This document shows positions 20,225-60,800 of a DNA stretch of 64,000 nucleotides, piece after piece (positions within the stretch are counted from its first letter, which is position 1; each line of letters begins with the position of its first letter). The stretch covers positions 23,106 through 87,105 of the forward strand of contig JAUPTZ010000005.1 of NCBI GenBank assembly GCA_030917815.1, in the 5' to 3' direction. The notes beneath the pieces were generated by a model, which had not been told where the DNA came from, searched no databases, and saw nothing but the letters and a program-made list of their open reading frames with translations. The stretch is from Candidatus Babelota bacterium. Lineage in GTDB: Bacteria; Babelota; Babeliae; Babelales; JAUPTZ01. Position numbers and translations under genes: made by a program.

Positions 20225-20414
20225 TACATATTCCTTCTTAAAATCCACCTACATACTGTATGTACTTTAATGGCCGGCCTTGTTCGTCTTTGCGAGGAGC
20301 CTTTGTGCGACGTGGCAATCCAGAGAGGATAATGTTAAATATCTTATCACGCTGGATCACCACGGGCTGACAATGCAGCCCTCGTGATGACGTAGAAATA
20401 AACTGTTACTATGG

Positions 20415-23159: not shown

Positions 23160-23185
23160 ACAAACAACCCCTTAAGAAAACGATA

Positions 23186-26102: not shown

Positions 26103-27155
26103 ATGGCATTGTTTAGCCTAAAGGGGATGGGGGGAACTATGAATATGTTACGTCGTCTATTTTTACTGATCAGCCTTGTAGCCTACAGCACCAGTGCGCC
26201 GGTCAACGCTATGGAATCGGAGCCGGTTAACGCGAGCGAGTCGGAACTGGATAGTATCGCCAAGAAGATAAAAAATACTCAGACGCAGGACAAGCGGCGG
26301 CGCATTAAGCGCGCATTGCTCGCAGCGGCCGCTGCGGCCGCTGCAGGTGCCATCTGGTGGCGCTATACAGGAAAAAAAGCCAGAAATACTACCAATCTCG
26401 TCAAGCCAAAATCGGCATCGACCAGACAAGTAACAGCGTCAACGGCAGCCACTGTACGAACACGACCTTTACCACAAACACGACCACCGCAAGCACCGTT
26501 ACCGCAACCAGACAGCATTGCACAAAAGTCTGAGGCAACATTTGAACATTATTTTTCCGACTATCTACAATCAAAGAAGAGCTTCCCTTATCAAAAAATC
26601 AAGGGACACCGACCGGTAAGATCACTTGAATATATTATTGGCCGCCTGTCGGAGAATGGGAAACTGTCCGGACACATGAGTTTTACCGAGGCAGAAGAAG
26701 CGCATGACTGGATTCAATGGGCCTTCCCAACACAAACAGAAAGCGCCTTTAATCGCGGAGCTATCCTTTCAAATAAAGAGTTTCAAACAAAAATGAAGGA
26801 AACGCCTGAATTACGCAACACTCTTTTATTGTGCTTCCGGTACTATCTCAACTTTATGGGACTTGATCTTCCTCCGACCTGTGACTTAAATACCAAGCAA
26901 GATGGCATTTCGTTCGTGAAAACCGAAAGATTTGAAGAGGGAATGCAAAATTTCTTAGAAAATGGTCACAATTGGATGAGAGTGTCCAGAATTCTGGAAT
27001 CACTTCGCATTCATGGGCTTGAAGAATATGGCCAGGCATTTAGTAGCTTTTTGACCACCCCAGCAGGAATTGAAAAAATGAAGCCTGGTTTTATTAAGCA
27101 AACGCAGACCAGCCAGGATTTTTGGAAAAAAAGAAGCCCGGCGGTACGCAGATGA
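26103..27155 (+). CDS. secreted/membrane protein with a C-terminal OGFr-like (opioid growth factor receptor N-terminal conserved region) domain
   Basis: AHDWIQWAFPTQTES...LLLCFRYYLNFMGLDL...GHNWMRVSRILESLRIHGLEEYGQAF parallels human OGFR as recalled (NHSYIQWLFPLREPG...AYELMLGFYGIRL...HNNLRITRILKSLGELGLEHFQAPL). The N-terminus has a signal peptide plus a poly-Ala helix. An alternative start lies at 26139. Confidence 0.7.
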   Translation: MALFSLKGMGGTMNMLRRLFLLISLVAYSTSAPVNAMESEPVNASESELDSIAKKIKNTQTQDKRRRIKRALLAAAAAAAAGAIWWRYTGKKARNTTNLVKPKSASTRQVTASTAATVRTRPLPQTRPPQAPLPQPDSIAQKSEATFEHYFSDYLQSKKSFPYQKIKGHRPVRSLEYIIGRLSENGKLSGHMSFTEAEEAHDWIQWAFPTQTESAFNRGAILSNKEFQTKMKETPELRNTLLLCFRYYLNFMGLDLPPTCDLNTKQDGISFVKTERFEEGMQNFLENGHNWMRVSRILESLRIHGLEEYGQAFSSFLTTPAGIEKMKPGFIKQTQTSQDFWKKRSPAVRR

Positions 27156-40662: not shown

Positions 40663-40696
40663 GACCCTGAATATTTTGGCATGCAAAGGTATTGAT

Positions 40697-41830
40697 ATGG
40701 TAAAACAGCAGTTGTGGATTATAAATAGCGCGCTTGTCGTCCTTGCGATAGTAAGTATTGCGCTTGCGCAGCTTGTTAAGCAAGACCTGCCGTCAATTCC
40801 AACGCGGCGGCGAAACTACGCACAGGCCGAAATAAAGCCACCTCGACTCATTGTAAGCCCGGAAAAAATATATCAAAACGATCTATTTGATACTTTTTCG
40901 GCACCAGCCGAGCCGGTCCCAACCTCAAAAAATCTTGTGACTCCGATTCCACAATTCAGCGTCAAAAATTCAGCAGCACCTACTAAGAACCAAAAGGTAG
41001 ATTTTATTCCACCGCTCGATATCACGATAAAAGGGATTATCATGTCCCCACAGCCAAAAAATAGCATTGTGATGGTAGCCGACTCAACCGGCAAAGAGCA
41101 AATGTATCACATAGGTGACAAAATTAATGACGGCCAAGTACTTAAAATCACTAAAAATCAAATGGTTGTAATTCGCGGTAACGGCCAGCAAGAAACATTC
41201 TTCTTACGTAAGATGGAAAAGCTCAATCCAGGACTTCCATCATGGGATTTTGCCATTAAGAAGATCGATGATGCTCTCTATCACCTTGATCCGGTAGAAA
41301 TTTTAAAAGAGATCACCAGCATTGGTGAGGTAATTGAAGCACTTGATTTATGCGGTGCATATAAAGATGGCAAATCAATTGGTCTCTTAATAGGATCAAT
41401 TAAACACCATCCACTAGCAGAGAAGCTTGGCTTGGCCTCGGGAGATATTATAACCAAAGTTAACAGCCTACCAGTCACCGACTCAAAAGAGCGTATTGCG
41501 GTGTACGATGCTATTGCCGAACTTTCAATGGGTGGCTACATTCACGTTTCGGTAATGCGTAGCGATAAATCATTAGAGCTTTCCTATCTCTTAAAACGGC
41601 TTGAGCGTCCATCACCATTTAGTTCATCAAGCGGCGATACTAAAGATGGTAAAGACACACAGGGATCAGACCTATTTCAGTTAGGTAAAGATGCTCAGCG
41701 GCAGCAAAATCGTCGTCGTTTTGACCAAATTCATCGGACCTCAGAACAGCATGACGCCGCTATATCTGAAATGCGCAAAAAAATGCTCGATGATATGCGT
41801 ACCCGCGCTCCAAATAGACGTGTATTATGA
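40697..41830 (+). CDS. GspC-like inner-membrane protein (TM + HR/PilP-like beta domain + PDZ)
   Basis: An N-terminal TM helix (WIINSALVVLAIVSIALAQLV), then ITIKGIIMSP...VMVADSTGKEQMYHIGDKINDGQVLKITKNQMVVIRGNG (GspC HR-like), then a PDZ-like region (LAEKLGLASGDIITKVNSLPV). The track start at 40676 is also possible. Confidence 0.55.
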   Translation: MVKQQLWIINSALVVLAIVSIALAQLVKQDLPSIPTRRRNYAQAEIKPPRLIVSPEKIYQNDLFDTFSAPAEPVPTSKNLVTPIPQFSVKNSAAPTKNQKVDFIPPLDITIKGIIMSPQPKNSIVMVADSTGKEQMYHIGDKINDGQVLKITKNQMVVIRGNGQQETFFLRKMEKLNPGLPSWDFAIKKIDDALYHLDPVEILKEITSIGEVIEALDLCGAYKDGKSIGLLIGSIKHHPLAEKLGLASGDIITKVNSLPVTDSKERIAVYDAIAELSMGGYIHVSVMRSDKSLELSYLLKRLERPSPFSSSSGDTKDGKDTQGSDLFQLGKDAQRQQNRRRFDQIHRTSEQHDAAISEMRKKMLDDMRTRAPNRRVL

Positions 41831-41852
41831 GTGAACGAAGGATATAAGAAGT

Positions 41853-44756
41853 ATGAATAAAAAATTTATTTTTACCATTGCACTCATTGTCTGCGTTCAA
41901 GCGTATCCACAAAAAATGTTTGACGATTTTCTGTCGGCACAAACGCCCTCATTAGAAAATAGATTTGATGATGATGTACTCGCAGCCACACCATCTCTAA
42001 GTTTAGGCAATGAATCGGCACTCACCAAAGAAGCACAGAGAAATCCGGATCTTTTTGGCCCTGTTGATGAAAAAAAAGATGTGTATTTAAATTTTGAAAA
42101 CGCCGATCTAAAAAATTTTGTTGAATATATTGCCGACATCAAAGGCATGAATATTATTCCGGACAAGTCGATTGCCGGCAATAAAATCTCGCTCAACTTT
42201 CGCAATCCAGTAAGTAAGACCGGCGCATGGAATACGTTCCTTACCGTACTTGAAATGGCCAACCTCAGTATCGTAAAGGTTGGTAACCTGTATCGCGTAA
42301 TAACTAAAGATAAAAAATTTAAACTGCCGCTGCCTACCTTTATTGGCGTCAATCCAAACACGCTTCCTGATTCTGATGCCACAATTCGCTACATAGCAAT
42401 GCTCGACAATATTCCAGCTCAGGACGTAAAAAATCTTCTACAAAGCATGCTCAGTCAACCGACGAGTCTTCTCGATCCACCAAATATTAATGGGTTCATC
42501 ATTACCGACTGCTCCTGCGTTATAAAAGCGGCGATGCAGGTACTTAATGAGCTCGACCAAACCGGTGTTGAAGAATCGGTTTACGTCATTCCATTAAAAA
42601 AAGCCAACGCGAGTGATGTAAAAACATTGTTTGAAACACTTATTACCACCAAAGACTCAAACCCCTTAGCGAAACTTCTTGGCAAGCCGCAAGACTCAAG
42701 CGAATACTTTACTCCTGGTACTCGTATTATTGCCGAAGATAGAACGAATAAACTTATCTTATTGGGACAGCGACAATCACTCGAAAAAATAAAAAACTTC
42801 ATCACTGAACATATCGATACCGATCTCAAACAAGCAAAATCACCCCTCAGGATTTACGACCTACAAAACGCTAACGTAACCGACATTGTTACCATCCTGA
42901 AAAGTGCAACCGATTCATCGCAATCATCTGCTGCCGGCAAGCAGGCCGCTACTTTTGGTGCAATTCGAGATGGAGCAAAATATTTTAAAAATATGACCTT
43001 TCAGGCCGATAAAGAAGGGAATCGATTGCTTGTTTCTTGCACCGAAGATGGTGACTGGGATCTCCTAAAGGAGACTATAAAGAAATTAGATACCGCACAG
43101 CCACAAGTTGCCATGCAAATGCTGATTGTAAGCATCAGCGCAACGGCACTCACGCAGCTCGGCGGGCAGTTTCGTAGTCCAAACCAAAATAGTGTTGGCG
43201 GCGGCATAAACTTTCAAACAGCAGCAGTATCACAACCGGTATTCACTACCGACAGCTCCGGCAACACACAAAGTGTTCTTGGTAACATGCTCAATTCGCT
43301 TGCGCTAGGACGAGGTATGACTGCAGTAAGTCTTGGTAACGCTGGTGGCAGCAATGGAGTCTGGGGTGTATTCAATGCCATTAAGCAACAAACCGATGCC
43401 ACCATATTATCCCAGCCCTTTGCCGTTGCCGCTAACTGCACCGAAACAAAACTCTTGGTCGGTAGTACCAGTTATATTACTACACAGTCAACCGGTGGTG
43501 CTGGCGCTATTTCCGGTAAAACACCGGCCGATGCAAATACTACCATTACATTTACCCCACAAGTAAACAGCGAAGGTGTCATTCGTTTAAAAATTACGGC
43601 CGACATTAAAGAATTCGTTCCTGAATCGGCCAACTTAAGCACACAATCAAAGTACCTTGATACGGTTGTTACCGTAGCCAACGGACAAGTTTTGGTTATC
43701 GGTGGTTTTATTCAAACCAAAATAACCGATAACGGAGGTCAAACCCCACTTCTAGGCTCCATTCCTATCTTGGGATGGATTGCTAAGAACCTTTCTCGTA
43801 CCGTTGAAAAAAGCTACCTCTTTCTATTTTTATGTCCAACCATTCTAAAACCTCGCACATCCCCCGGCATCGGCACGTATAGCAAAATGTGTCTTCATCA
43901 AGCGGCAAAAGAAGTGGAAGAAACAATTAAAACAACAAAAACAAATGACCCTATCCACAACTGGCTCTTCAACTCAAGTGGCGAAAATTATTCACATAAA
44001 GTGATCGACTTCGCTAACGCACGCTATCAGCCCAATACGGTCGATATTCGCTACGATCCTTACTACCGCAGTTCGATGGCAGATACTGGGAAACAGGCCC
44101 CTCCACTAAAAATAGATGGTGAATCATCGTCGCCAGGGGCATATATGCAAACCCAGCATATGTATTCTGATGAAGCAAAGATTCAAGAAAAATCAACAAA
44201 GGTGGTTGGCGAAAAGGTGGCAAAGGAGGTAGAAATGCCACAGCAGCCACTAGAAAATAAACCGCTAAAGAAAAAGGAATCCCGCAAGAAGCCTGAGAAG
44301 GTTATCTTTGACCCACAAAGGGAAGTGATAAGAGATGACAACGACGTAATAGCCGCTATTGAAGCTCCATTGCCAGCGCCAACGACCGCAGGGCATCTCG
44401 CACCCGAACCGGCAAACATTGCAATGTTTGATGTAGATACTGCACTCGCTGAAAAGCGATCAAGATTACGCTCACTTCTTGCACAAGGCTCACTGGGAGA
44501 CCTGCTTACTAAGCCGGCAACACAATCATCACCAATTAAAGAGATGACAGAAGAAGAGTTTAATGCATCGTATGAAATCGAGCCGGAAATCGAAACCGTG
44601 CCTGAATCAACACCTGTGGCACAAGATTCATTTACACTTACCCGACGAAATGGCATACAAAACCTCTTTGCTACAAGCAATCAAGGCGAAGTAAACACAT
44701 CTTCACTAAATCGACCTGCAAGTAGTGGCCTACAATCACTGTTTGGAGGTAAATAA
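41853..44756 (+). CDS. secretin 1 (GspD/PilQ family) with a ~300-aa low-complexity C-terminal extension
   Basis: N0-like VYLNFENADLKNFVEYIADIKGMNIIPD, repeated N-domains, and a secretin core (PQVAMQMLIVSIS...TPLLGSIPILGWIAKN...YLFLFLCPTILKP). The tail from about 43860 is rich in E, K, P and S. Confidence 0.85.
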   Translation: MNKKFIFTIALIVCVQAYPQKMFDDFLSAQTPSLENRFDDDVLAATPSLSLGNESALTKEAQRNPDLFGPVDEKKDVYLNFENADLKNFVEYIADIKGMNIIPDKSIAGNKISLNFRNPVSKTGAWNTFLTVLEMANLSIVKVGNLYRVITKDKKFKLPLPTFIGVNPNTLPDSDATIRYIAMLDNIPAQDVKNLLQSMLSQPTSLLDPPNINGFIITDCSCVIKAAMQVLNELDQTGVEESVYVIPLKKANASDVKTLFETLITTKDSNPLAKLLGKPQDSSEYFTPGTRIIAEDRTNKLILLGQRQSLEKIKNFITEHIDTDLKQAKSPLRIYDLQNANVTDIVTILKSATDSSQSSAAGKQAATFGAIRDGAKYFKNMTFQADKEGNRLLVSCTEDGDWDLLKETIKKLDTAQPQVAMQMLIVSISATALTQLGGQFRSPNQNSVGGGINFQTAAVSQPVFTTDSSGNTQSVLGNMLNSLALGRGMTAVSLGNAGGSNGVWGVFNAIKQQTDATILSQPFAVAANCTETKLLVGSTSYITTQSTGGAGAISGKTPADANTTITFTPQVNSEGVIRLKITADIKEFVPESANLSTQSKYLDTVVTVANGQVLVIGGFIQTKITDNGGQTPLLGSIPILGWIAKNLSRTVEKSYLFLFLCPTILKPRTSPGIGTYSKMCLHQAAKEVEETIKTTKTNDPIHNWLFNSSGENYSHKVIDFANARYQPNTVDIRYDPYYRSSMADTGKQAPPLKIDGESSSPGAYMQTQHMYSDEAKIQEKSTKVVGEKVAKEVEMPQQPLENKPLKKKESRKKPEKVIFDPQREVIRDDNDVIAAIEAPLPAPTTAGHLAPEPANIAMFDVDTALAEKRSRLRSLLAQGSLGDLLTKPATQSSPIKEMTEEEFNASYEIEPEIETVPESTPVAQDSFTLTRRNGIQNLFATSNQGEVNTSSLNRPASSGLQSLFGGK

Positions 44757-44758
44757 TT

Positions 44759-46381
44759 ATGCTGATACTGAAAAACCTATTTTTCCCAAGGCTCTTGCAT
44801 AACAAGCCACTGTTTCCTATCCGTCGCGTTGCCATTCACATCGAATCAACAACCATTCATGTTGCACATGTTCAGGATACACGTACAAAGACAATAATTA
44901 CTGCTCTTGAGGAATATCAAATTAACCCGGGTGACGCACGCACATACACGCAACGCCTCGTTGCTACCTTAAAAAAAATAGCCCCTAAAATAGAAAAAAA
45001 TGCAGAGATTATTGTTACCTTTCCTTCATCAAAAGTGGTAGTAAAAGAGCTCACGCTGCCGTTTCTCGATGAAGAAAAAATCCGCATGGTTATCGAATAT
45101 GAAATAGAGGCAGTAATTCCCTTTAAGCTGGAAAATGCGGTAACCGATTTTATCATTCTCAGCCGCAGTGAAGTTAAAGAATCATCCAATGTATTGGTTA
45201 TCGCTGCACAAAAAGAAGAAGTCAAAAAAATTGTAGACGCTCTTCATAAGGCCGATATAGAGCCTCACCAGATTACTATTGATTTATTCAGTATCATCTC
45301 ACTTTTCGGCCATATTCCTACCTATAGCAAACTTAAGCATGCCTATGCAGTTGTTGATATGGGCCCCCAGTCAACACGAATCGCACTTATCAACAGCCAA
45401 ACCATGATCGCCACCAGAACGCTCTTGCAAGGATCGGAGCTCCCTACAAAAATTAATGATGATGAAATCGGACAACCCATTGATTTAGCAACACATCATA
45501 GTAGATTATTCAGCGAGATTAGCTTCACGTTAGATTCTTTTGAAATCAAGCAGTCAAGTGTTCCAGAGATTGAAAAACTCTTTTTTATTGGAACACCAAG
45601 CGTGTTCAGCGGCTTTGAGGAATACGCAAAAAAAGCTATCCATTGCCCATGCGAAGTTCTTGCAACCGAACAAATAACAACTAATCCAACCATACAATCA
45701 AAAATCTCATTGCAGCCCGCTTCATGGCAAACCTACAGCCGCGTTCTTGGCGCTGCATTGGTCTCTCCTGCGTACGAATCATTCACCCTTCGCCGCAAGG
45801 AACTGGAGCTATCACCACGCCCGTTAATACAACAGCAGTTGCTCGCCGGCATTATCCTCTTTACTCTTGCCCTAGGTGCCCTGGGACTTCAGGGGTATTT
45901 TCAAGTCGAGGAAGGGACTGAGCAAATAACACTCCTCGAGGAGCGTGAAATCAAACGGCTGCGCTCAGCTCTCCCAACCGATCATCCCGGCACAAAAAAG
46001 AAAACTATTAAAACATTGGCTCGAGAAGTCGAAACATATGTGCAAGAACAGGAAGAATTATGGTCGGCCTTTGCCACTCAGCGCTTACGTCCCCTAGAGA
46101 TATTGCAAGAACTCACCATACTCTTCAATAAAAAGAAGTTTGATGTTGATATTGAGCACATTATCATTAGTCGCAACGATGCGCCAAATCCTATTGAAAT
46201 CAAAGGAGTGTTTCGTTCAAAAACAGGCAAGGAAGATTTCAAGCATTTCACCGAACTAGCTGATGATATTGGCAAGCTCGCCAAGATGCTCGTATTAACC
46301 GAAGAAATTGATCCATCTCAGCTACCGGACAAGGGAGTTAGTTTCACTGCTCACTTTAAATTGCGCGAAGGGGCATTATGA
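44759..46381 (+). CDS. PilM-PilN fusion / GspL-like assembly-platform protein
   Basis: An actin-like PilM pattern (VTFPSSKVVVKELTLPF...VLVIAAQKEEV...AVVDMGPQSTRIALI), then a TM helix (LLAGIILFTLALGALGLQGYF), then a periplasmic domain of about 170 aa. Confidence 0.6.
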   Translation: MLILKNLFFPRLLHNKPLFPIRRVAIHIESTTIHVAHVQDTRTKTIITALEEYQINPGDARTYTQRLVATLKKIAPKIEKNAEIIVTFPSSKVVVKELTLPFLDEEKIRMVIEYEIEAVIPFKLENAVTDFIILSRSEVKESSNVLVIAAQKEEVKKIVDALHKADIEPHQITIDLFSIISLFGHIPTYSKLKHAYAVVDMGPQSTRIALINSQTMIATRTLLQGSELPTKINDDEIGQPIDLATHHSRLFSEISFTLDSFEIKQSSVPEIEKLFFIGTPSVFSGFEEYAKKAIHCPCEVLATEQITTNPTIQSKISLQPASWQTYSRVLGAALVSPAYESFTLRRKELELSPRPLIQQQLLAGIILFTLALGALGLQGYFQVEEGTEQITLLEEREIKRLRSALPTDHPGTKKKTIKTLAREVETYVQEQEELWSAFATQRLRPLEILQELTILFNKKKFDVDIEHIIISRNDAPNPIEIKGVFRSKTGKEDFKHFTELADDIGKLAKMLVLTEEIDPSQLPDKGVSFTAHFKLREGAL

Positions 46382-46935
46382 GTTTTTTAGAAACCATTGC
46401 TGACACCATTTCACAGCAAACTAAGAAGCAGCACAAAATCTTTATCCTCACCATCGGCTCGCTTCTTTCTCTGTCACTTATTGGTATCGTCTATTTTTTA
46501 TACGCACAGCGAGATGGGGACATCCAAACCATAACCTCACTCTATGAACAAATAAAAAAGAACGACTCACTGATGGCAAAAAGTGAACGCACAAAAGCGG
46601 AAGAAGATCGTGTTCAAGCACTCCTTGAAAGCTATAAGGGGTTTAGCATCAAAACATTTTTTGAAACACTCACTTCAGAACAAAAAATGAAAGCCGAGAC
46701 CGGATGGGAGACCGCAACTTGCAATATTGAGGGTAATGAAACCTTTGATGAGATCGTGCTTGCCGCTACCTTCAAGGGGCAGACAACGCAAACATTAGTA
46801 AGTCTACTGAATGCACTTGAAACACATGAAAACGTCTACATAAAAGAGCTAGAAATAAAAAAAGAAGGCAAAAAGAACATCACTTTCGATCTCACAATAG
46901 CAACCAAAAAACGTAAACAATTCTGGGAAGATTAG
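46378..46935 (+). CDS. PilO/GspM-like bitopic membrane protein
   Basis: 185 aa with an N-terminal TM helix (IFILTIGSLLSLSLIGIVYFLY). Its size and position after the L-like gene fit, and it overlaps that gene by 4 nt. The call rests on context, not motifs. Confidence 0.4.
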   Translation: MSFLETIADTISQQTKKQHKIFILTIGSLLSLSLIGIVYFLYAQRDGDIQTITSLYEQIKKNDSLMAKSERTKAEEDRVQALLESYKGFSIKTFFETLTSEQKMKAETGWETATCNIEGNETFDEIVLAATFKGQTTQTLVSLLNALETHENVYIKELEIKKEGKKNITFDLTIATKKRKQFWED

Positions 46936-46938
46936 GCC

Positions 46939-49425
46939 ATGATGGGACATCGCTATTTATCACTTCTATGTATGTGTATGTTGATTGCGTGCTGCCTGGC
47001 TGCAAAAGAAGAGGGTACGCAAGGGTCGGTGCAAAAGTTCTCATTTAAAAAAGAAAAAAAGGCTGATGCTTCTGAAACTCGACAAAATGATGCAGTAAAG
47101 ACAATAACACTAAAGTCGGACAGTCCCGTTACACCACAGGAAGGCACAGCGAGTGAAAAAACTCCCTCAAGCGACCAGCCTGCTGAGGGAACGATTTACT
47201 TTAATTTTGATAATGCATCGCTTACCACGGTACTTAATTATCTGGTTGATCGAAAGAATATGGACGTTATTCCACACAAGGATCTTCAGAACATCAAGGT
47301 AAGTCTTGTCTCGCGTGAACCAATGTCACTTGCTGAGGCATGGGAAACGGTGCTTGTATTGATGGAGGCAAACAGCTTTACCATTGTGAACGTCAATGGA
47401 ATTAACCGAGTTGTTCCGCTCAACGCCTCATCTCAAAACTCATTACCCTGCTATAGCTCGATTCGCGGAACCAGGCCACAAGACCTACCTGATACTAACG
47501 CCATATGTCGCTACATTTATTTCTGTAAAAACTTAAAGGTTGATGTCGCTTCAAACATTATTTCGCCCCTTGTAAGTGACAAAGCGGTACAGGTTAACCC
47601 AACATTGCAAGCATGTATCATTACTGATAACTGCAATTATATTAAATCGGCACTTCGTATCGTAGAAGAACTAGACATAAACGGGATGCGACAAACTATT
47701 AAGATTCTTCAATTAAGGCATACCAACGCCGATCAACTTGCAAAGCTCTTGAACGAACAGATCGTACAGGGTCAGCAGCAAGATAATTCTAAAATTCGTA
47801 TCATTGGTGAAGAGAAGAGGCGTGAAATGTCGTTCTTCTCAAAAGATACAAAAATATTCTCAGAGCCTATGCACAATCGCCTCATATTTATGGGTATGGA
47901 GGATGCCATTAATCGCATAATAAATTTCATTAATAAGCACCTTGATGTACCACTTGACGCTGCAAAATCACGGCTTCGCATTAAAGAACTCAAATACTAC
48001 AGTGCACCAGCTATGAAAGAGTTGCTTGATCAAATGATTACACCGCCAAAGGGGCTCGGTGGCACGACCGGACTTGTCGAAGGGGAATACAAATTTTTCC
48101 AAGATGTTGTTATCACACCGGAAACGCCAAGTGGCAGCGGCGGTACCGTTTCAGGAACCGGAAACAGATTAATCATTTCTTGCAATCCTGAAGACTGGCA
48201 ACGTCTCTCTACATTCATAGACCAAATAGATAAGCCACAACCACAGGTTGCGATTGAAATGATGATTGTTGACGTGGAAATTGATGATGAAATTGGGCTC
48301 GGGGGTAAGTTCAGAACACCAAATGGCCTCCTGGGCAATAACATCAATGCTTCCTCTTTTATGCTTGATAGCGCAAGTACTAGCTTAAGTACGGTACCAA
48401 CCAACGTGCTTAATAACATAGCACTCGAGCCAAACTCATCTATCATATCGTTTGGTAATGCGTCATCAGACAAGATCTGGGGCGCTATTCGTACCATGTA
48501 TGGCATTAGCCATAGTAATGTCATTTCACAGCCCTACCTGGTAGCAAATAATAACACCAAGGGCACGGTAAAATCTTCAGTAACGCACTTGATACCAACC
48601 GTTCAAACAAACAATAGCACACAACCGGTGCAAACAGATGTGCCACAATCGGCCGATATCACCGCCCAAATTACCCCTCATGTGAACGCCTCCGGAATTA
48701 TTAAATTGGAAATCCGTATAACCGTAGACGAATTTAAATCGGCAAAAGACTCCAACGCCGATAAAACAAACAGAGAAATCACTATACAAGCCGTATCTAT
48801 GGCGGCTGGCGAAGTTTTAGTTCTCGGTGGACTCGCAAACAGTAAGCATGCAAATTCCACCTGGGCTGTTCCTATTTTGAGCGCCATCCCCATTTTAGGA
48901 AATTTATTTAGAGACAGGACTCGAGAAACCATCAAATCAAATCTCTACATATTCATACGACCAACAGTGATAAAGCCGCACTTTAACCTAGGGGCCGATG
49001 AATATACACAACTAAAACTTGATTATGCAAAATACCAAGTTTTAACCAGTGATGACTCCTCACTAAGCCAAGATCCAATTCAGCGCTATTTATTTGCCCC
49101 AACCCATTATAATATGAAGCAAAAGGCTATAGATAATAAAACAAATCGAATGCCAGTCATTGATGACTTCGCTGAACGTCGTCACCTTCCTAATGAAGTA
49201 GAAATGGCCAAAGACCCGCTCTTTCATAAGATTCAGGAAACATCCGATATCACCTATGAACCAGAAGAGGGATTTGCATCGATGCCTCACGTTAATCCAT
49301 CCGAGTACACTACGCCAGGGATTTTTGAAAATCTAATGTTTGACGACCTTTTCAATGAAAAAAGTCAAAACACTAACACCCCGCAACTACTTGGGAAGCG
49401 ACAGTCGCCCTTGCGCACTCAGTAA
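46939..49425 (+). CDS. secretin 2 (GspD/PilQ family), probable lipoprotein
   Basis: N0-like IYFNFDNASLTTVLNYLVDRKNMDVIPH and secretin core PQVAIEMMIVDVE...VPILSAIPILGNLFRD...LYIFIRPTVIKP. The lipobox LIAC (Cys18) follows a basic n-region. Confidence 0.85.
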   Translation: MMGHRYLSLLCMCMLIACCLAAKEEGTQGSVQKFSFKKEKKADASETRQNDAVKTITLKSDSPVTPQEGTASEKTPSSDQPAEGTIYFNFDNASLTTVLNYLVDRKNMDVIPHKDLQNIKVSLVSREPMSLAEAWETVLVLMEANSFTIVNVNGINRVVPLNASSQNSLPCYSSIRGTRPQDLPDTNAICRYIYFCKNLKVDVASNIISPLVSDKAVQVNPTLQACIITDNCNYIKSALRIVEELDINGMRQTIKILQLRHTNADQLAKLLNEQIVQGQQQDNSKIRIIGEEKRREMSFFSKDTKIFSEPMHNRLIFMGMEDAINRIINFINKHLDVPLDAAKSRLRIKELKYYSAPAMKELLDQMITPPKGLGGTTGLVEGEYKFFQDVVITPETPSGSGGTVSGTGNRLIISCNPEDWQRLSTFIDQIDKPQPQVAIEMMIVDVEIDDEIGLGGKFRTPNGLLGNNINASSFMLDSASTSLSTVPTNVLNNIALEPNSSIISFGNASSDKIWGAIRTMYGISHSNVISQPYLVANNNTKGTVKSSVTHLIPTVQTNNSTQPVQTDVPQSADITAQITPHVNASGIIKLEIRITVDEFKSAKDSNADKTNREITIQAVSMAAGEVLVLGGLANSKHANSTWAVPILSAIPILGNLFRDRTRETIKSNLYIFIRPTVIKPHFNLGADEYTQLKLDYAKYQVLTSDDSSLSQDPIQRYLFAPTHYNMKQKAIDNKTNRMPVIDDFAERRHLPNEVEMAKDPLFHKIQETSDITYEPEEGFASMPHVNPSEYTTPGIFENLMFDDLFNEKSQNTNTPQLLGKRQSPLRTQ

Positions 49426-50639
49426 TGCCACAATGCGTACTTGATGTACTTCACACCGTAGGTTTTTTACTTGCTAGTGGATTGATTGGCACCAGCTTTT
49501 TTATATACACACAGACTGAGCGTGTTCATGTATCCATCCTAACACCCCTATCACCACTGTTCTCAGTAGGAGCAACCCTTGGCGGCATTGGCCTGTACCA
49601 CATGCTCTCAGGCTATTGCTTCTTTGCACTCCTAGCTGCCATAGGATTCGCATGGCATGCTTTTTACCGTACGAGAAATTATATTCCCTTACATGCTGCT
49701 GCCTGTGCGCTTTGTGCCGTAATGACGCTCTGTGTGGATCATCATCAATTTACCGAAAAAAAAGATCTCTTGCTGCAAGGGAGACACACACTGCACGGGC
49801 TCGTCATTGATCGTAAACAATGGGCACACCGACTTAATGCAACGGTAATAACTATTAACCTCACCCATCTGGATTATGCACCCACTAGCGGCCAATTTAA
49901 ATTTTTTGTTTACACTAACCCATCAATAACAGTGGGTGATTATGCGATCTTTTTTCATACTACCGCATCGCCAGCCCCTCAAAAGAAAGATTTTCTCTCA
50001 TATGCACTGCGTGACCACTCTCTAGGCTCTTGCTTTACGCCAATACTACAAGCACGAATATTCCCCACCAAGTCTTATTACAGCCGCTGGATTTCGTGGT
50101 GGTACATCTGGCGGGAAAACCTCTATAGATCACTACAAGAAACTATTCCAGCTATACCATTCACGTACATATCAGCACTCTTTTTTGGCAACAAAGAATG
50201 TGCTGAATTCTTAGACATTCGTGCAAAGTTCACTCGCTGGGGACTAACTCATTATTTAGCTCGCTCCGGTCTTCATATTTCATTACTCATCACTCTTTGG
50301 GTGGGAGTATTCCGATTCATCCCTCTCCCAATCACATTAAAAGCACCGATTTTATTCGCCATACTCTTTCTCTACGACCATCTTTCGTGGGCAAGCATCT
50401 CATTTAACCGAGCACTGTGGCTTTGGTTTTTTTATTTAGGAAGCTGGCTCGTAAAAGCAACAGCAACCCCACTGTTTGGCCTTTCTCAACTCTCATTAGT
50501 AATCCTACTCTATAATCCCTGGCAATCAGGATGTCTTGATTTTCAATTGAGCTTCTTATTGACCATGATTCTTATGATATATGGCTACTATCATCAACAA
50601 TCGTTTCTCCTGTCTTATTGCGCCAAGAAAAAGAAATAG
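49425..50639 (+). CDS. short ComEC/Rec2-like membrane channel protein (no beta-lactamase-fold domain)
   Basis: ALFFGNKECAEFLDIRAKFTRWGLTHYLARSGLHISLL matches the ComEC competence-domain motif (G..H..A.SGLH). The N-terminal TMs plus an OB-like insert resemble DUF4131. The protein is only 404 aa. Its ATG overlaps the secretin-2 TAA (TAATG). Confidence 0.6.
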   Translation: MPQCVLDVLHTVGFLLASGLIGTSFFIYTQTERVHVSILTPLSPLFSVGATLGGIGLYHMLSGYCFFALLAAIGFAWHAFYRTRNYIPLHAAACALCAVMTLCVDHHQFTEKKDLLLQGRHTLHGLVIDRKQWAHRLNATVITINLTHLDYAPTSGQFKFFVYTNPSITVGDYAIFFHTTASPAPQKKDFLSYALRDHSLGSCFTPILQARIFPTKSYYSRWISWWYIWRENLYRSLQETIPAIPFTYISALFFGNKECAEFLDIRAKFTRWGLTHYLARSGLHISLLITLWVGVFRFIPLPITLKAPILFAILFLYDHLSWASISFNRALWLWFFYLGSWLVKATATPLFGLSQLSLVILLYNPWQSGCLDFQLSFLLTMILMIYGYYHQQSFLLSYCAKKKK

Positions 50640-52124: not shown

Positions 52125-52202
52125 CCTCCGCCTTTCATTGCGACTGTGCTAGAATTGTCCACACATAATAATGATGGACTTACTCTGTATGCAGAAAGAA
52201 AC

Positions 52203-52847
52203 ATGATGGAAGTATTCCTAAAAAAAACGGTTGCGGAGCGCCTAGCATATCTTTTTACCCATGAGGGCAACCCCCTTAACGAAGCCCCTGCAGAGCGACT
52301 CGCGCGCCTCAGAAGTTACTACAAAGACTGTCAACGATGCCCTCTTGCCGCCGAAGGGAGAGCACAGGTCGTTTTTGGCGAAGGCTGCCCAACCGCACGC
52401 GTACTTTTTATTGGAGAGGCTCCTGGAAAAGAAGAGGACCTTCTCGGAAGACCATTTGTCGGGCGCTCTGGGCGATTACTTACACGTATGCTTGATAAGC
52501 TAGGCCTCACACGAGATGTTGTGTACGTTGCAAATACGGCCCGCTGCAGGCCACCAGAAAATCGACAGCCAACACCGGAAGAAAGCGGCACCTGCATTAG
52601 CCACATACTTCTCCGCGAAATAAACATCATTAGACCTCAGCTCATTTGCACGCTTGGCGCCACCGCAACCGGTGCGCTTTTGGACATCAAACAAAGCCTC
52701 TCGTCGCTGCGAGGAAAAATTATACAGACAGAGTACTTTTCAATAATGCCAACATATCACCCGGCCTATCTCCTCAGAAATCCGCCAGCCCAAAGTATCG
52801 TCGAAGCCGATTTCTTGAAAATTATCGCGTTTTTGGATGGCAAATAA
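52203..52847 (+). CDS. family-4 uracil-DNA glycosylase
   Basis: Motifs CQRC...GEGC, GEAPGKEED, GRPFVGRSG and HPAYLLRNP. The likely ATG is at 52203, and the track ORF starts at GTG 52146. Confidence 0.8.
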   Translation: MMEVFLKKTVAERLAYLFTHEGNPLNEAPAERLARLRSYYKDCQRCPLAAEGRAQVVFGEGCPTARVLFIGEAPGKEEDLLGRPFVGRSGRLLTRMLDKLGLTRDVVYVANTARCRPPENRQPTPEESGTCISHILLREINIIRPQLICTLGATATGALLDIKQSLSSLRGKIIQTEYFSIMPTYHPAYLLRNPPAQSIVEADFLKIIAFLDGK

Positions 52848-52915
52848 AAAGTCGTGCGGCTATATGATGTTCTCCAGATGTCTCACTTGTAACGATTGCA
52901 CTGTCCGAGTAGGAA

Positions 52916-52969
52916 TGTGGATAACTCTGTGGATAACTTGTGGATAACTTGTGGATTGGATGTGGATGA
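52916..52969 (-). repeat. DnaA-box array, left arm (5 boxes, minus orientation)
   Basis: TGTGGATAA at 52916, 52928 and 52939 (perfect complement of TTATCCACA), plus TGTGGATTG at 52950 and TGTGGATGA at 52961. Spacing is 12/11/11/11 bp. Confidence 0.85.
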
Positions 52970-53057
52970 CATTCGAATGGCGCGTGCCTGAGGAGCAATG
53001 CAAGGACCTGCGCTGGATTTGAGCCACCAGAGCCATTATTGAGAGGGTTGCAAAAAC

Positions 53058-53098
53058 TTATCCACAAGTTATCCACACCAATCCACAAGTTATCCACA
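53058..53098 (+). repeat. DnaA-box array, right arm (4 boxes, plus orientation)
   Basis: TTATCCACA at 53058, 53069 and 53090, and CAATCCACA at 53079. Spacing is 11/10/11 bp. The arm is an imperfect inverted copy of the left arm, sharing a 21-mer (TGTGGATAACTTGTGGATTGG). Confidence 0.85.
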
Positions 53099-53156
53099 TA
53101 AGCCGAAATCCTAAAAATGCCCAAAAACGCAGGGGTTTTACGGCCGAAAGGCGGAG

Positions 53157-53196
53157 TTATCCACATTTTTCCCTTCCCCTACTATTATTAATACTA
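53157..53196 (+). promoter_or_regulatory. terminal DnaA box + C-rich cluster + DnaA-trio-like triplets
   Basis: TTATCCACA (53157-53165), then tttttCCCTTCCC, then CTA CTA TTA TTA ATA CTA (53179-53196). On the complementary strand these read 3'-GAT/AAT-5' in 5 of 6 triplets, as in the DnaA-trio element described for B. subtilis oriC. Confidence 0.6.
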
Positions 53197-53373
53197 AAAA
53201 CGTATGAAATAAAGTAGTTATAGGTAACCCAAAAAATTGAAAAAAGCCGTTACTTCACTTTCTGTGCAAAATCGGTAGACTAGTACCCATAACAGAGTGT
53301 GCTGGTATTTAGACTTCCGGGGCGATAGATTGAGGCTCCGGATTTTTCTTTAAGCGTAATTGGAGTTTATAGC

Positions 53374-54465
53374 GTGAAGCTTGATGAAGTCATAGAATCG
53401 TTACTCGAGGAGCGAAACCTCGATCGAGAGAAGGTTATTGCGGTTATTCGAGACGGCGTTTTGACGGCGTATCGGAAAAAGTTTCCTGACCTGGCGTTCC
53501 AGGCTCGCTATAACACGAAGACAGGCCAAGTAGAAGTTTTGGTAGAGAAGACCGTTGTTTCTGGTGTTCCTGCGTCTTCGGCTGAGATTCCGTTGCGCAA
53601 GGCAAGAATTATTGACGCCAGTGCAGAAATTGGCGGGACCGTTCTTGAGGCGTTTGACCAGTCGGTTGGGCGTATCGAGATGTCTGCGGCGCGGCAGTTT
53701 ATCGCTGGCGGTATCCGTGGCGTAGAGCAGCAAGCGGTCTATGATGAATTCAAAGACAAAGAAGGAACTATCATTAACGGTCGAGTCCATAAGCGTGAGC
53801 GCGCTGGGTATGTGGTTAAAATGGGTGAAACAATGGCTTTCCTCCCGAAATCGTGTACAATCCCAGAAGAGAACTTGCGCATTGGTTATCCGGCGCGAGC
53901 CTTGTTGAAAGAAGTTTTACCAAGCGCCCGCGGGGACCATCAGTTAATTTTAGATCGTGCATCGAGTCAATTCGTACAAAAGCTTCTTGAGCTTGAAATT
54001 CCTGAGATATTTGAGGGAGTTGTCGAAATTAGACAGGTGGTGCGTGTTCCCGGGTATAAATCGAAAGTTGTTGTTTCATCAAACAGCAAAGAGATTGACC
54101 CTGTGGGGACTTGCGTTGGGGTTGGTGGGGTTCGTATCCGACCAATTCTGAAGGAGCTGGGGCAAGAGAAGGTAGACCTTATTGAGTTTACGGAAAATCT
54201 CGAGCAGTTGGTTGCCGAAGCGCTTAAGCCGGCTGAAATTGACCGTGTTGTGGTTGATGAAGATCACGGACGGGCTACTGTGTGGCTTGCGCAAGATCAG
54301 CGATCATTCGCTATTGGCAAGCAAGGGCAAAACATAGCACTTGTTTCTCGCTTGACCGGGTTACATGTTCAGCTGCAAGAAGATACAGCACAAAAAAAAT
54401 TGGCTGCCGGTGTTGACGAATTAGAAGCAATACACGGACAGTCGGAAAACAAGACAGAGGAGTAG
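53374..54465 (+). CDS. nusA: transcription termination/antitermination factor NusA
   Basis: 363 aa with a GTG start. An N-terminal NusA pattern (LDREKVIAVIRDGVLTAYRKKF), an S1-like segment (GTIINGRVHKRERAGYVVKMGE) and KH-like segments (DPVGTCVGVGGVRIRPI). Confidence 0.9.
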   Translation: MKLDEVIESLLEERNLDREKVIAVIRDGVLTAYRKKFPDLAFQARYNTKTGQVEVLVEKTVVSGVPASSAEIPLRKARIIDASAEIGGTVLEAFDQSVGRIEMSAARQFIAGGIRGVEQQAVYDEFKDKEGTIINGRVHKRERAGYVVKMGETMAFLPKSCTIPEENLRIGYPARALLKEVLPSARGDHQLILDRASSQFVQKLLELEIPEIFEGVVEIRQVVRVPGYKSKVVVSSNSKEIDPVGTCVGVGGVRIRPILKELGQEKVDLIEFTENLEQLVAEALKPAEIDRVVVDEDHGRATVWLAQDQRSFAIGKQGQNIALVSRLTGLHVQLQEDTAQKKLAAGVDELEAIHGQSENKTEE

Positions 54466-54474
54466 TCATACGGT

Positions 54475-56745
54475 ATGCGTATAAGCGAGTATGCTAAAGA
54501 GCACAATTTACAGCCGCGCGACGTTGTTGATACGTTGAAGCAAAATGGCCATCAAGTGACCGATCAAAGTTCGGAGCTAAATGGTGACATGACTGCACTT
54601 CTTGATCGAACGATTGGTGGCAGTAATTCTCGACCGCGTGGCCCTCGTCCTGGGGGTGATGCCGGTGCGCGAGGTCCTCGTCCGCCGCGTCCGGTTGGTG
54701 ATCGATCCAGTACTGCGCCTTATGCGCCGCGCACGCCACGTCCTGCCGGTGCCACTGGCGATGCAAAGCCTGAAGCTGGCGCTACTACATGGCGTCGACC
54801 AGCTACTGCTGGGGGGCGTCCTGAGGCTACCGCTGGTGCAGCGACTGCTCTTGTTGATAAAAAGACGAGTACCAAGAAAGGTGCTGCGCCTAAAAAGCGA
54901 ACGGCTAAAAAAGAGAAAGACGACACCGACGTCGAAGCAACGACTGTACAACAAAGCAATCGCACAAATCGTGAGACGATTATTACTCCGCCGTTGGTTG
55001 AAAGCGTTATTGTTAAAGGCGATATGCCATTGATTGAAGCGGCAGAATTGTTGCGTAAGCCGATCAGTGAAGTTATTTTTGTCCTGCTTAAAAATGGTAT
55101 AGCCAAGAATGTGCATGCCATTGTTACGCCGAGTGATATGGCTATTTTGGGTACTGCATTCTCAATAGGCATAACGGTTGAAGAGGCGCCTAAGCAAAAG
55201 CATTCGGCCTCTGTTTCTGCCGACAAGAAAACTAACTCCATCGAGGCACATGGTGAGCAGCGCTTGCCGATTGTTGTTGTTATGGGGCATGTTGACCACG
55301 GTAAGACGACCCTGCTTGATTATCTCCGCAAAACAAATGTTGTTGCCAAAGAAAAGGGTGGAATCACCCAGCATCTAAGTGCGTATGAAGTAAAGACCGG
55401 CAACAAAAGCTCGATTTTCCTTGATACTCCTGGCCACGAAGCGTTTTCCGCCATGCGGACCCGTGGAACTCGTATCACCGACATCGCGGTTATTATTGTT
55501 GCGGTTAATGACGGGCTTAAGCCGCAAACAATTGAGGCCATCAAGTTGGCTCAACAGGCCGCTGTGCCGATCGTTGTTGCGATTAATAAAATTGATAAAT
55601 TGGATTCAGAAGCTCAGCTTGAGACCATACGTACGCAGCTTGCACAGCACGGATTAACGCCTGAAGAATGGGGTGGGGATACGGTATGTGTAAAAATTTC
55701 GGCCAAGACCGGCCAGGGGGTTAATGACCTTCTTGATATGCTTGGGCTTGTTGCCGAGATGCTTGATTTGAAAACGACAACCAAGCTTCCAGCTCGAGCG
55801 TTTGTACTTGAGACTCGCCAACTAAAAGGGCATGGGCTTGCGGTGACAGTAATTTGCCGAGAAGGCATTTTACGCCGCGGAGATCATTTTACTTGTGGCC
55901 AAACAACTGGAAAAGTTCGCTTATTAATCGATAGTTATGGCGCTTTTGTTGACGAAGTTGGCCCTTCGATTCCGGTTCAAGTTATCGGATTTGATGAGGC
56001 TCATGGGCTTGGTGATTATCTTGACGTAGTAAGCGCTGCTGAATATCAAGAAGCTCGTGCAAATGCGCATAATCGTAAGCCGGCTACCATGTCGACTTCA
56101 TCGAAGCAGGGGCAATCAGCCGATACACCAGGGCTCCGCCTTATGTTTAAGGCAGATGTTCAAGGTTCGTGCCAGGCCATTATTGATGCGATTGGCAAAA
56201 TGGAGCAGCATGCAAAAAATAACTCGATTCGCATTGAGTTGTTGTCATGTGAGGTGGGTCCTATAACTGAGAGCGATGTGATTCGTGCCTCAGATACCGG
56301 TGCTATACTTTTTGGCTTGCATGTGCGTGCTGATAAAAATGCACAGGCAATGGCTAAAGAGAAGCGGGTAGAGATCATTCTTCATGATATTATCTATCAT
56401 CTTTTTGAGCAGATTGAGGCGCTTATCAAGACCGAGCGTCGTAAAATTATCCACTTGGTTGAGGCCGGTAAAGCTGAAGTACTTAAAGTGTTTCCAATCA
56501 AGGGACATAAGGTTATTGCTGGTTGCATGATCAAAGAAGGTATTCTTAAGATTGGTGACAAGGTCGTTTGCACTCGTTCTCGTCAGGAAATTGGAAGCGG
56601 CAAGGTTATTACCTTGCAACGTGATCGTAAAGAAGCCAAGGAAATCTATGCTGGCAACGACTGCGGTTTGCTTACCGATTCATTCCATGATTGGGCAGTG
56701 GGCGATCGTATAACGATCTTTACGCATCAACAAGAAGAAGAGTAA
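54475..56745 (+). CDS. infB: translation initiation factor IF-2
   Basis: GTPase motifs [20 protein letters not shown] and NKIDK. The N-terminal region is Pro/Arg/Gly/Ala-rich low complexity. The gene follows nusA, as is canonical. Confidence 0.95.
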
Positions 56746-59068: not shown

Positions 59069-59917
59069 ATGGACATTGTAGCTTTTCAGGAAACTATTAA
59101 TGCTTACTATGCCACGCACAAGAGGGCCTTTCCTTGGCGTGATGTGAGCAACCCCTACTATGTTCTTGTCTCGGAAATCATGCTGCAACAGACGCAGACA
59201 TATCGGGTAGAGCCGAAATTTGAGCAGTTTATAGCGCAATTTCCTACCATTAATGATCTTGCAAGTGCGCCATTGGTTACCGTGCTTTTTGCATGGCAAG
59301 GCCTTGGCTATAACCGTCGCGCGAAATTTTTGCATAAAGCGGCACAAGAGATTGTGGCCATACATAATGGCCATGTGCCTGCAGAAGTTCCTCATCTTCA
59401 AGCACTTTCCGGACTTGGATATGCGACTGCCTCTTCGGTGGCCGCATTTGCTTACAATGTTCCTACCGTATTTATAGAAACTAATATTCGGGCCGTCTTC
59501 CTACACTTCTTTTTTAATGGGCAGGACAACATACACGATAAGCAACTTATGCCGCTCGTTACCAGTGCACTTGAGGGCCAAGACCCGCGCCAATGGTATT
59601 ACGCTCTGATGGATTATGGGGTCATGCTTAAGAAAACACACCCCAATCCAAGCCGTAAAAGTAAGCACCATGTAAAGCAATCTCGGTTTGAGGGGTCTGA
59701 CCGGCAAATACGAGGAGCGATTATTCGTGTTCTAACGAGTGTTTCGTATTCATTACCTTATGATACATTGGTAGCGATGGTGTGCGAAGATGTGGGCCGC
59801 TCGACGAGCGATAAAAAACTGGCTACTATTGTCCGAAAGCTTGCTGATGAGGGTTTGCTTTCTGTTGATGGAAATGATCACGTTCAAATTTATGATCGGT
59901 CTGTATATGGTAAGTAA
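59069..59917 (+). CDS. MutY-like HhH-GPD DNA glycosylase lacking the Fe-S cluster cysteines
   Basis: FPWR...PYYVLVSEIMLQQTQ (catalytic Glu context), WQGLGYNRRAKFLH and the HhH motif LSGLGYATASSVAAFA. The whole protein has only one Cys. IETNIRAV sits where MutY has LDGNVKRV. Confidence 0.7.
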   Translation: MDIVAFQETINAYYATHKRAFPWRDVSNPYYVLVSEIMLQQTQTYRVEPKFEQFIAQFPTINDLASAPLVTVLFAWQGLGYNRRAKFLHKAAQEIVAIHNGHVPAEVPHLQALSGLGYATASSVAAFAYNVPTVFIETNIRAVFLHFFFNGQDNIHDKQLMPLVTSALEGQDPRQWYYALMDYGVMLKKTHPNPSRKSKHHVKQSRFEGSDRQIRGAIIRVLTSVSYSLPYDTLVAMVCEDVGRSTSDKKLATIVRKLADEGLLSVDGNDHVQIYDRSVYGK

Positions 59918-60800
59918 CACGACAAATACGTGGCAGGGGGTTCGGGATACTGCATTTTGGGTTGCGCTCTATCGTGCGCGTGAGTCATTAAGAGCCGATC
60001 GGCTTTTTAATGATAGATGGGCGACACATTTAGTTGGAGAGGACAATGCGCGGGTTATTGAGAAGTTACCGCGCGTTTTTGCAAGTGAATGGAAGTATTC
60101 GTTGCGGACCGTTACTATCGATACTTTTATACAGAATGCGATTGACCGTGAGTTTATTGATGTTGTAGTGAACTTGGGGGCCGGGCTTGACATGCGCCCT
60201 TATCGTCTTGAGGTACCGTCACATATTGTGTGGGTCGAGGTGGATTTGCCCGAAATTATCGCTTATAAAGAAAAAAAAATAGCCTCTTTTACGCCGTATC
60301 CGATTCCTCATTGCCTCGTGAAGCGAATGGGCTGTGATCTTTCTAAAAAAGAAGAACAAGCAAAAGTGTTTAATGAGGTCGCAACATTTGGAAAACGGTG
60401 CCTCATCGTTACAGAGGGTCTTCTTATTTACCTTGAACAGTCGCAAGTAGCCCAGTTGATGAATGAAGTTGCCTCACATGGCGAAACTGTTTTCTGGGTT
60501 ACCGACTACCATACTGACTTTATGGTTTCCTGGTACAAAAAAACGGCACAATTACTTCTTAGTCACTTAAAAATGACTTTTAAATTCTCAGTTCCTAAAG
60601 ATAAGGGTGTGGCGTACTTTGAGCAATTTGGCTGGAAACCGGTTGCTGACATAAGCATGTTTGATGCTGCTTTTAAGTATGATCGCCGACCACCGTTTCT
60701 TGTGCGAGTTCAGGCATCGCTCGGCCTTGGTGGCCGAGGATCATATGTTCGTGCGATGTCTGGATGCTGCTTGCTTAAAAAAACAAAACTCACAGTATAA
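59907..60800 (+). CDS. class I SAM-dependent O-methyltransferase (LCMT/TIGR00027-like)
   Basis: TAFWVALYRARES...DRWATHLVGE and VVNLGAGLDMRPYRL. The ATG at 59907 overlaps the upstream gene by 11 nt, and the track ORF starts further upstream. Confidence 0.7.
   Translation: MVSNTTNTWQGVRDTAFWVALYRARESLRADRLFNDRWATHLVGEDNARVIEKLPRVFASEWKYSLRTVTIDTFIQNAIDREFIDVVVNLGAGLDMRPYRLEVPSHIVWVEVDLPEIIAYKEKKIASFTPYPIPHCLVKRMGCDLSKKEEQAKVFNEVATFGKRCLIVTEGLLIYLEQSQVAQLMNEVASHGETVFWVTDYHTDFMVSWYKKTAQLLLSHLKMTFKFSVPKDKGVAYFEQFGWKPVADISMFDAAFKYDRRPPFLVRVQASLGLGGRGSYVRAMSGCCLLKKTKLTV

Follow-up and report, generated by a model that had tools for sequence, protein, structure and literature searches.

When a dense group of DnaA boxes is found far from any dnaA gene, the question arises of whether it marks the place at which replication starts or a place at which DnaA is bound to other ends. 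The question is raised here by the 526-bp intergenic region between udg and nusA in a 64,000-nucleotide stretch of a Candidatus Babelota bacterium genome (contig JAUPTZ010000005.1), hereafter the window. A 335-bp part of that region, 52916-53250, is very probably the chromosomal origin of replication (oriC) of this member of the Dependentiae (TM6, Babeliales), predicted from its sequence to be DnaA-dependent. That identification is made because a dense box cluster conserved in the phylum is present, strand composition switches at the same place, and an unwinding module adjoins it at the right edge. An earlier inspection of the letters, the sequence-only reading, had proposed a candidate oriC between these two genes, and the proposal is strengthened in that the skew switch is at the cluster and is repeated at the homologous site in 14 relatives.

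Boxes, unwinding module and strand composition

The perfect box word, TTATCCACA, occurs seven times in the window, with every copy inside 52916-53165 and none elsewhere, whereas the base composition gives an expectation of ~0.62 per 64-kb window, or 0.0024 per 250 bp. At up to one mismatch, 29 occurrences were observed in the window against 14.8 expected, a number that was reached in 0 of 100 shuffles. Together with three near-perfect boxes, the cluster amounts to ten within 250 bp, arranged as two opposed arrays and a lone box (Table 1). In the distal, minus-strand array the boxes starting at 52916, 52928 and 52939 are perfect, that at 52950 is CAATCCACA and that at 52961 is TCATCCACA, the start-to-start steps being 12, 11, 11 and 11 bp. 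In the proximal, plus-strand array those at 53058, 53069 and 53090 are perfect and that at 53079 is CAATCCACA, with steps of 11, 10 and 11 bp. A 21-nt segment is common to the two arrays, 52939-52959 being 100% complementary to 53078-53098. The box search thus bore out every detail of a layout described beforehand as ten boxes, seven of them perfect, in inverted arrays phased at 10-12 bp; the G+C-richer spacer of 88 bp and the 21-mer shared by the arrays were likewise as described. A 114-amino-acid minus-strand open reading frame (ORF) that overlaps the arrays (52822-53166) was considered and discarded as spurious, the part of it encoded by the spacer not being conserved in close relatives.

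To the right of the arrays, the lone box is followed by elements that have a recognizable order. On the bottom strand the trio run reads 3'-GAT GAT AAT AAT TAT GAT-5', i.e. six in-phase triplets with a central A, of which five fit 3'-G/AAT-5', the trio consensus reported to follow a GC-rich region (PMC5295017). This bottom strand is predicted to be the one that DnaA binds when single-stranded. The basal unwinding system, as published, comprises a DnaA box, a spacer of up to 16 bp (13 bp being commonest) and at least three trios, 3'-NAN-5', among which 3'-GAT-5' is the one most often found adjacent to the box; for 57% of origins two tandem boxes are predicted ahead of the trios, and modules with a single box fit the definition (PMC8287927). 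With its 13-nt spacer and six in-phase triplets the window agrees with that definition exactly. No second tandem box is present before the trios, TTTTTCCCTTCCC agreeing with a box at only 4 of 9 positions. The sequence-only reading had listed a lone box at 53157, a C-rich cluster, six CTA/TTA-type triplets and an AT-rich tract, all of which are there, and had seen in them a grammar of box, GC cluster, trios and duplex-unwinding element, which accords with the published system down to the commonest spacer value (PMC8287927). A repeat search of the A+T-rich tract gave no family of 13-mer repeats, and GATC, with an expectation of 2.1 in 52848-53373, has no occurrence there.

The segment of 58 bp that separates the proximal array from the lone box lacks the IHF consensus, WATCAANNNNTTR, matches with one mismatch being confined to the DnaA boxes and the unwinding element. 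Two candidates of another kind for this segment were tried and rejected. One was a conserved hairpin: GC-rich hairpins are present in some relatives, but the folding energy is unremarkable, with a mean z of -0.8 over 15 origins. The other was a terminator, for which the terminator scan had no match there.

Strand composition changes sign at the cluster. GC skew, taken in windows of 2 kb, stays negative over 1-52 kb and is positive in all of the remainder, from 53 kb onward, with means of -0.115 over the left 52.9 kb and +0.135 over the right 10.7 kb. Within the window the cumulative G-C curve bottoms out at 52,791, and the keto/amino disparity is most extreme at 53,294. A switch from negative to positive along the strand as read is the polarity of an origin, which is established knowledge (PMC7111523). 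The sign does not depend on gene strand: to the left, plus-strand skew is negative in 18/18 minus-strand and 18/18 plus-strand genes, and to the right it is positive in 7/7 genes. The check that had been suggested beforehand, GC skew together with a Z-curve, was run on the 64-kb window, and the location of both extremes at the box cluster supports an origin.

Several considerations weigh against an origin at this site. The skew and box-cluster results cover only 64 kb of the replicon. The 13 kb immediately to the left (39.5-52.8 kb) is transcribed head-on to a leftward fork. None of the origin-indicator genes dnaA, dnaN, rpmH, gidA and parAB is in the window. Lastly, the origin published for Babela massiliensis is 152 nt upstream of dnaA (PMC4378268), and linkage to nusA is therefore not universal in the phylum if that placement is correct. 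The head-on transcription had been entered as a caveat by the sequence-only reading; the plus-strand genes at 39.5-52.8 kb are real, but as a caveat they are weak, since 58% of the coding bases to the left of the site (a sum over ORF coordinates) are co-directional with a leftward fork and the head-on genes are equally negative in skew.

Separation of the site from dnaA and dnaN had also been claimed, and both kinds of search of the window bear on it. Pfam and NCBIfam scans of all window ORFs of at least 150 amino acids gave no match to Bac_DnaA or DNA_pol3_beta, and tblastn with a DnaA probe gave no dnaA in the window, nor within ~10 kb, where the contig allows, of 15 related loci. The probe was the B. 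subtilis protein, and was validated by Pfam (Bac_DnaA, 270 bits) and by its detection of dnaA in 17 metagenome loci. The claim holds, and the predicted origin is therefore at least 53 kb (left) or at least 10.6 kb (right) from dnaA/dnaN; in relatives with full flanks the distance from dnaA is at least ~10 kb on each side. Adjacency to dnaA is dispensable, the origin of E. coli being situated away from it (PMC5295017).

The distance from dnaA is also what would be seen if the cluster never fired, and acted instead as a DnaA-titrating or reactivating locus like datA or DARS, or as a DnaA-controlled promoter of nusA, with the true origin elsewhere, e.g. at dnaA, where that of Babela has been published (PMC4378268). 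E. coli datA and DARS are also groups of several DnaA boxes outside the dnaA region, and a conserved promoter-like element for nusA is ~90 bp from the last box. What speaks for firing is that, in the window as in 14/14 relatives, the cluster coincides with a skew switch of origin polarity, a sign change for which an origin elsewhere would leave no reason, and that the module of box, 13-nt GC-cluster spacer, trios and A+T-rich unwinding tract, present here at the strand-composition switch, is not a feature of datA or DARS, neither of which is situated at such a switch. A non-firing cluster is accordingly regarded as improbable, and an origin at 52916-53250 remains much the preferred identification.

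Table 1. Features of the udg-nusA region and its flanks (window coordinates), with the origins of relatives that use a variant box word (coordinates of the respective loci)
Feature	Position	Strand	Remarks
Family-4 uracil-DNA glycosylase gene (udg), left flank	52146..52847	+	TIGR00758, 182 bits
Distal DnaA-box array	52916..52969	-	five boxes, 11-12 bp period
Inter-array spacer, 88 bp	52970..53057	.	53% G+C vs 45% in window
Proximal DnaA-box array	53058..53098	+	four boxes, 10-11 bp period, all oriented toward the A+T-rich tract
Fixed-length spacer, 58 bp	53099..53156	.	proposed segment for bending or an architectural protein; A-tracts and T-tracts common, sequence variable
Lone DnaA box	53157..53165	+	perfect; adjoins the unwinding element
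13-nt spacer, TTTTTCCCTTCCC	53166..53178	+	C-rich cluster at its end
DnaA-trio run	53179..53196	-	top strand CTA CTA TTA TTA ATA CTA
A+T-rich duplex-unwinding element	53179..53250	.	25% G+C (75% A+T) vs 45% G+C in window
Promoter-like element for nusA	53254..53281	+	TTCACT, 16 nt, TAGACT; read from sequence, below consensus-scan threshold
nusA, right flank	53374..54465	+	TIGR01953, 320 bits
infB, after nusA	54475-56745		TIGR00487, 501 bits
Variant-box origins	L011:9453-9766, L014:9488-9728, L015:3965-4193, L017:4917-5169, L018:9555-9829, L020:9528-9803		

Conserved layout, box words and the same module elsewhere

A search with the NusA of the window led to Dependentiae (TM6, Babeliales) metagenome-assembled genomes at 53-84% identity, by which the organism was placed in that phylum, and 14 of their nusA loci, with the window itself, make up the 15 origins compared. 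One plan upstream of nusA is common to all 14 relatives. From the udg side toward the gene it consists of a minus-strand array (2-5 boxes in each of the 14), a spacer that is variable, a plus-strand proximal array (conserved in all), and a lone plus-strand box, after which come a spacer, in-phase YTA triplets, an A+T-rich tract, the promoter-like element and nusA. Certain lengths are held with great constancy. Start to start, the last array box and the lone box are 66-67 bp apart in 15/15 origins, with no conservation of the intervening sequence, and from the lone box to the YTA trios there are 13-14 nt in 14/15, the other (L015) having ~12 nt. In-phase YTA runs of at least 2-4 triplets are present in 15/15, and the columns of the unwinding element are 80-100% A/T across the 15. 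The sequence of the inter-array spacer is not conserved, and in some relatives it contains one extra, 'middle' box. Measured between their inner boxes, the two arrays are 96-97, 106-109 or 120-122 bp apart in 13/15 origins, the exceptions being L011 (181 bp, or 139 bp to its middle box) and L007, which has an array with a 33-bp gap. As these size classes differ by about one box unit of 11-12 bp, it is suggested that the arrays retain their rotational phase relative to each other.

Skew at the homologous site is negative to the left and positive to the right in 14/14 Dependentiae nusA loci, while nusA loci from outside the Dependentiae have no such switch, apart from a weak case, L024 (-0.044/+0.038). 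This bears on the idea that the change of skew in the window is the breakpoint of a large inversion or the seam of an assembly chimera that happens to coincide with the box cluster. Assembly is in fact disturbed by these repeats: two short-read (Logan) contigs of the same organism, L002 and L003, have their first base 461 bp upstream of nusA, where the left array reaches its outer limit, from which it follows that the inverted box arrays break short-read assembly at the origin. Sequencing runs in which this organism occurs include SRR24011144, SRR24011145 and SRR24011147. Against this, the same junction, the same right-hand genes and the same skew polarity recur in the independent assemblies of 14 genomes, some on long contigs (570 kb and, for L018, 996 kb), and a chance coincidence of this sort is hardly credible.

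Within the conserved geometry the box word itself is not constant. The window and eight relatives have TTATCCACA; L017, L018 and L020 have TTATCCACC; L011 and L014 have TTATGAACA; and L015 has TTATCAACA. The word differs among clades and is uniform at every position within each origin, and the groups defined by it are clades on a neighbour-joining tree of NusA. The fetched loci of the three variant clades contain 42 perfect copies of the word proper to the clade, and 40 of these are inside the 650 bp upstream of nusA. With all sites rewritten uniformly and the geometry fixed, the boxes behave as expected of sites that are read by one protein, and the replacement across a clade, as judged from sequence comparison, would imply a shifted DnaA specificity.

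The module is not restricted to the Dependentiae. A metagenome scan with the pattern TTATCCACA-N57/58-TTATCCACA-N13/14-YTAYTA matched at least 120 loci; the pattern fixes the spacer length, and the scan therefore reveals the module in other lineages and not a dominance of that spacing. At least 33 of these loci have a Dependentiae-like nusA 180-380 bp downstream, and in at least 17 the fetched contig includes dnaA, most often with its end 100-250 bp upstream. For at least 50 there are other neighbours (rnpA-yidC and parA, recognized by eye from ORF translations), and for at least 20 the right-hand sequence is too short to judge. Origins from the dnaA-linked set (L045, L151, L116, L142, L084, L126) have the same opposed arrays, 58-bp gap and trios. 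At one dnaA-linked locus, where DnaA shares 71% identity with that of B. subtilis and dnaN is downstream, a three-box array is followed by the 58-bp gap, a box, a spacer and CTA CTA trios. The 13 nt are filled by a second tandem box and 'gccc' in 6 of the 8 dnaA-linked examples looked at, whereas in the Dependentiae the length of 13 nt has been kept and the second tandem box is gone. Given these comparisons, the Dependentiae origin is best seen as a canonical dnaA-type core minus its second proximal box, and now at nusA.

A different setting for the module is a family of marine phage-like contigs (L043, L066, L068, L069, L076, L077, L082, L086, L096, L118, L129, L138, L144 and L153). In these, e.g. 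at L076:5108-5260, three tandem copies of TTATCCACA, a 58-bp gap, a lone box, 13-14 nt and TTA trios are succeeded by an A+T-rich tract with short direct repeats, just upstream of an ORF resembling a terminase small subunit (phrog_4102, 1e-9), and in L076 the GC skew goes from -0.18 to +0.12 across the module. Such contigs may represent phages that use a chromosomal-type origin served by the DnaA of the host. Occurrence of the box/58 bp/box/13-14 nt/trio module in that company lends something to the notion that the origin in the window belongs to an integrated or extrachromosomal mobile element that exploits host DnaA. That notion has to contend with the conserved synteny of core housekeeping neighbours (udg, nusA, infB), with the lack of integrase, terminase or plasmid genes in profile scans of the window, and with a skew whose coherence extends 53 kb leftward and 10.7 kb rightward; neither element boundaries nor variable presence among close relatives was seen. 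It is considered exceedingly unlikely, and a chromosomal oriC continues to be the favored interpretation.

How the module came to be upstream of nusA is a matter for tentative proposal only, and one that is plausible without being the expected outcome: in the ancestral Dependentiae lineage the whole canonical module may have left the dnaA region for the nusA-infB promoter, where it was kept phylum-wide. The geometry would then have been frozen (66-67 bp; 12-14 nt), and at least three clades (TTATCCACC, TTATGAACA, TTATCAACA) would have exchanged the box word at each of their 8-11 sites together, which implies that DnaA's DNA-binding domain changed accordingly. If this is what occurred, a natural series for the co-evolution of initiator and origin would be at hand, and the dnaA-adjacent origin of Babela massiliensis would appear to have been misplaced.

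In the literature searched no description was found of the nusA linkage, the architecture or the box variants of Dependentiae origins, the prior statements on oriC that were found for the phylum being single sentences for Chromulinavorax (PMC6561590) and Babela (PMC4378268). The element is of a known kind and no new mechanism emerges from it; it is unusual in its neighbor gene, its regularity and its clade-specific box words. Its relevance is in part practical, as it supplies an origin location for a large and almost entirely uncultured phylum of intracellular bacteria, of use for genome orientation, for checking the correctness of metagenome-assembled genomes and for coverage-based estimates of growth rate. 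It also means that the textbook origin grammar of opposed arrays, fixed spacer, lone box, 13-nt spacer and trios holds far from model organisms, and it offers two natural experiments on box arrangement, namely a spacer of invariant length whose sequence is free and a clade-wide rewriting of the box word with architecture unchanged.

Proposed firing, the nusA leader and neighboring genes

To the computed positions, polarity, conservation and skew, a course of events can be fitted by analogy with better-known origins. ATP-DnaA would fill the plus-strand array of four and, with it, the lone box, giving a set of five protomers, and a second ATP-DnaA set would form on the five opposite boxes and face the first, as in E. 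coli oriC. The 58-bp spacer would be bent, either intrinsically or by a protein of the HU/IHF type, and the oligomer on the array would thus reach the protomer at the lone box. From there it would extend over the 13-nt spacer onto the trios of the bottom strand (3'-GAT GAT AAT AAT-5'), stretching and melting them. The opening would spread into the A+T-rich tract at 53197-53250, helicases would be loaded there, and forks would depart in both directions. More speculatively, transcription of nusA away from the unwinding element might aid melting through the negative supercoiling generated upstream, as has been proposed for gidA in E. coli.

The promoter-like element that would drive such transcription borders the A+T-rich tract on the right and is directed into nusA-infB, away from the unwinding element. 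Its form, TTCACT followed after 16-17 nt by TAGACT, TAGAAT or TAAACT, recurs in most of the Dependentiae relatives. Farther on, the nusA leader (53317-53351) contains a hairpin, CCGGGG-N13-CTCCGG, and then ATTTTTCTTT. Because its loop is long, the hairpin was missed by the simple terminator scan. It is kept in close relatives with compensatory changes, CCGGGG/CCCCGG in L006 and CCAGGG/CCCTGG in L008. Hairpin and T-run together resemble a transcription attenuator, possibly one for autoregulation by NusA, support from RNAalifold being weak. ARAGORN and Rfam scans of the whole window gave neither a tRNA nor an Rfam structured RNA.

Some features of the wider window are of interest in their own right. 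On its plus strand, at 40676-50639 and head-on to a leftward fork, is a secretion/pilus cluster with two secretin genes (41853-44756 and 46939-49425) and T2SS-C-like, PilM-like and ComEC-like genes. On the minus strand, at 17483-25972, three paralogous genes in tandem encode M16 (insulinase-type) peptidases of 914-928 amino acids. Two proteins, encoded at 26103-27155 and 59790-60800, have domains typical of eukaryotes, the N-terminal region of the opioid growth factor receptor (PF04664, 5e-15) and a leucine carboxyl methyltransferase (PF04072, 3e-28); their genes may be concerned with host interaction or have been acquired from the host of an intracellular bacterium.

Comparison with known origins

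The closest published statement by taxonomy is that for Chromulinavorax destructans, also of the Dependentiae, where an origin was predicted mid-genome, at 651,641-652,233, from GC skew and TTATCCACA (PMC6561590). Phylum and criteria are the same as here, and the predicted interval of 593 bp is comparable to the 526-bp intergenic region. The prediction is one sentence without architecture or neighbor genes.

In the B. subtilis type of core, situated at dnaA-dnaN, tandem boxes are followed by boxes 6 and 7, after which come a GC cluster, DnaA-trios and an A+T tract. The Dependentiae origin has the same orientation of boxes toward the trios, a 13-nt spacer that ends C-rich, first trios that are 3'-GAT-5', and an A+T-rich tract next. 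It differs in that the box proximal to the trios is single, and in being located upstream of nusA instead of in the dnaA-dnaN interval.

E. coli oriC carries five boxes in each orientation, as facing pentamers, and its R1 is separated from R5M-I2 by the IHF-binding region (PMC10316083). The sequence-only reading had called large opposed arrays an uncommon geometry, which does not stand, since E. coli oriC has them (PMC10316083), as do the dnaA-linked metagenomic origins; their presence in both shows the arrangement to be widespread. In common with E. coli oriC and with that of Vibrio cholerae chromosome I, one lone and four tandem boxes are beside the unwinding element and face five of opposite orientation. 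Also as in E. coli, gaps of 2-3 bp separate neighboring boxes, the lone box is oriented in the same way with respect to the unwinding element, 13 nt intervene between box and first unwinding repeat (the R 13-mer to R1 in E. coli), and the origin is translocated away from dnaA. Unlike E. coli, it lacks GATC sites, 13-mer repeats and an IHF consensus within the spacer; its boxes are mostly perfect in consensus, where E. coli oriC has low-affinity variants; the distance from lone box to array is 67 bp as against 55 bp for R1-R5M; and its neighbors are udg and nusA instead of gidA and mioC. Taken element by element, the distal array is the counterpart of the right DnaA-oligomerisation region of E. 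coli, and the lone box at 53157 is the counterpart both of E. coli R1 and of B. subtilis box 6.

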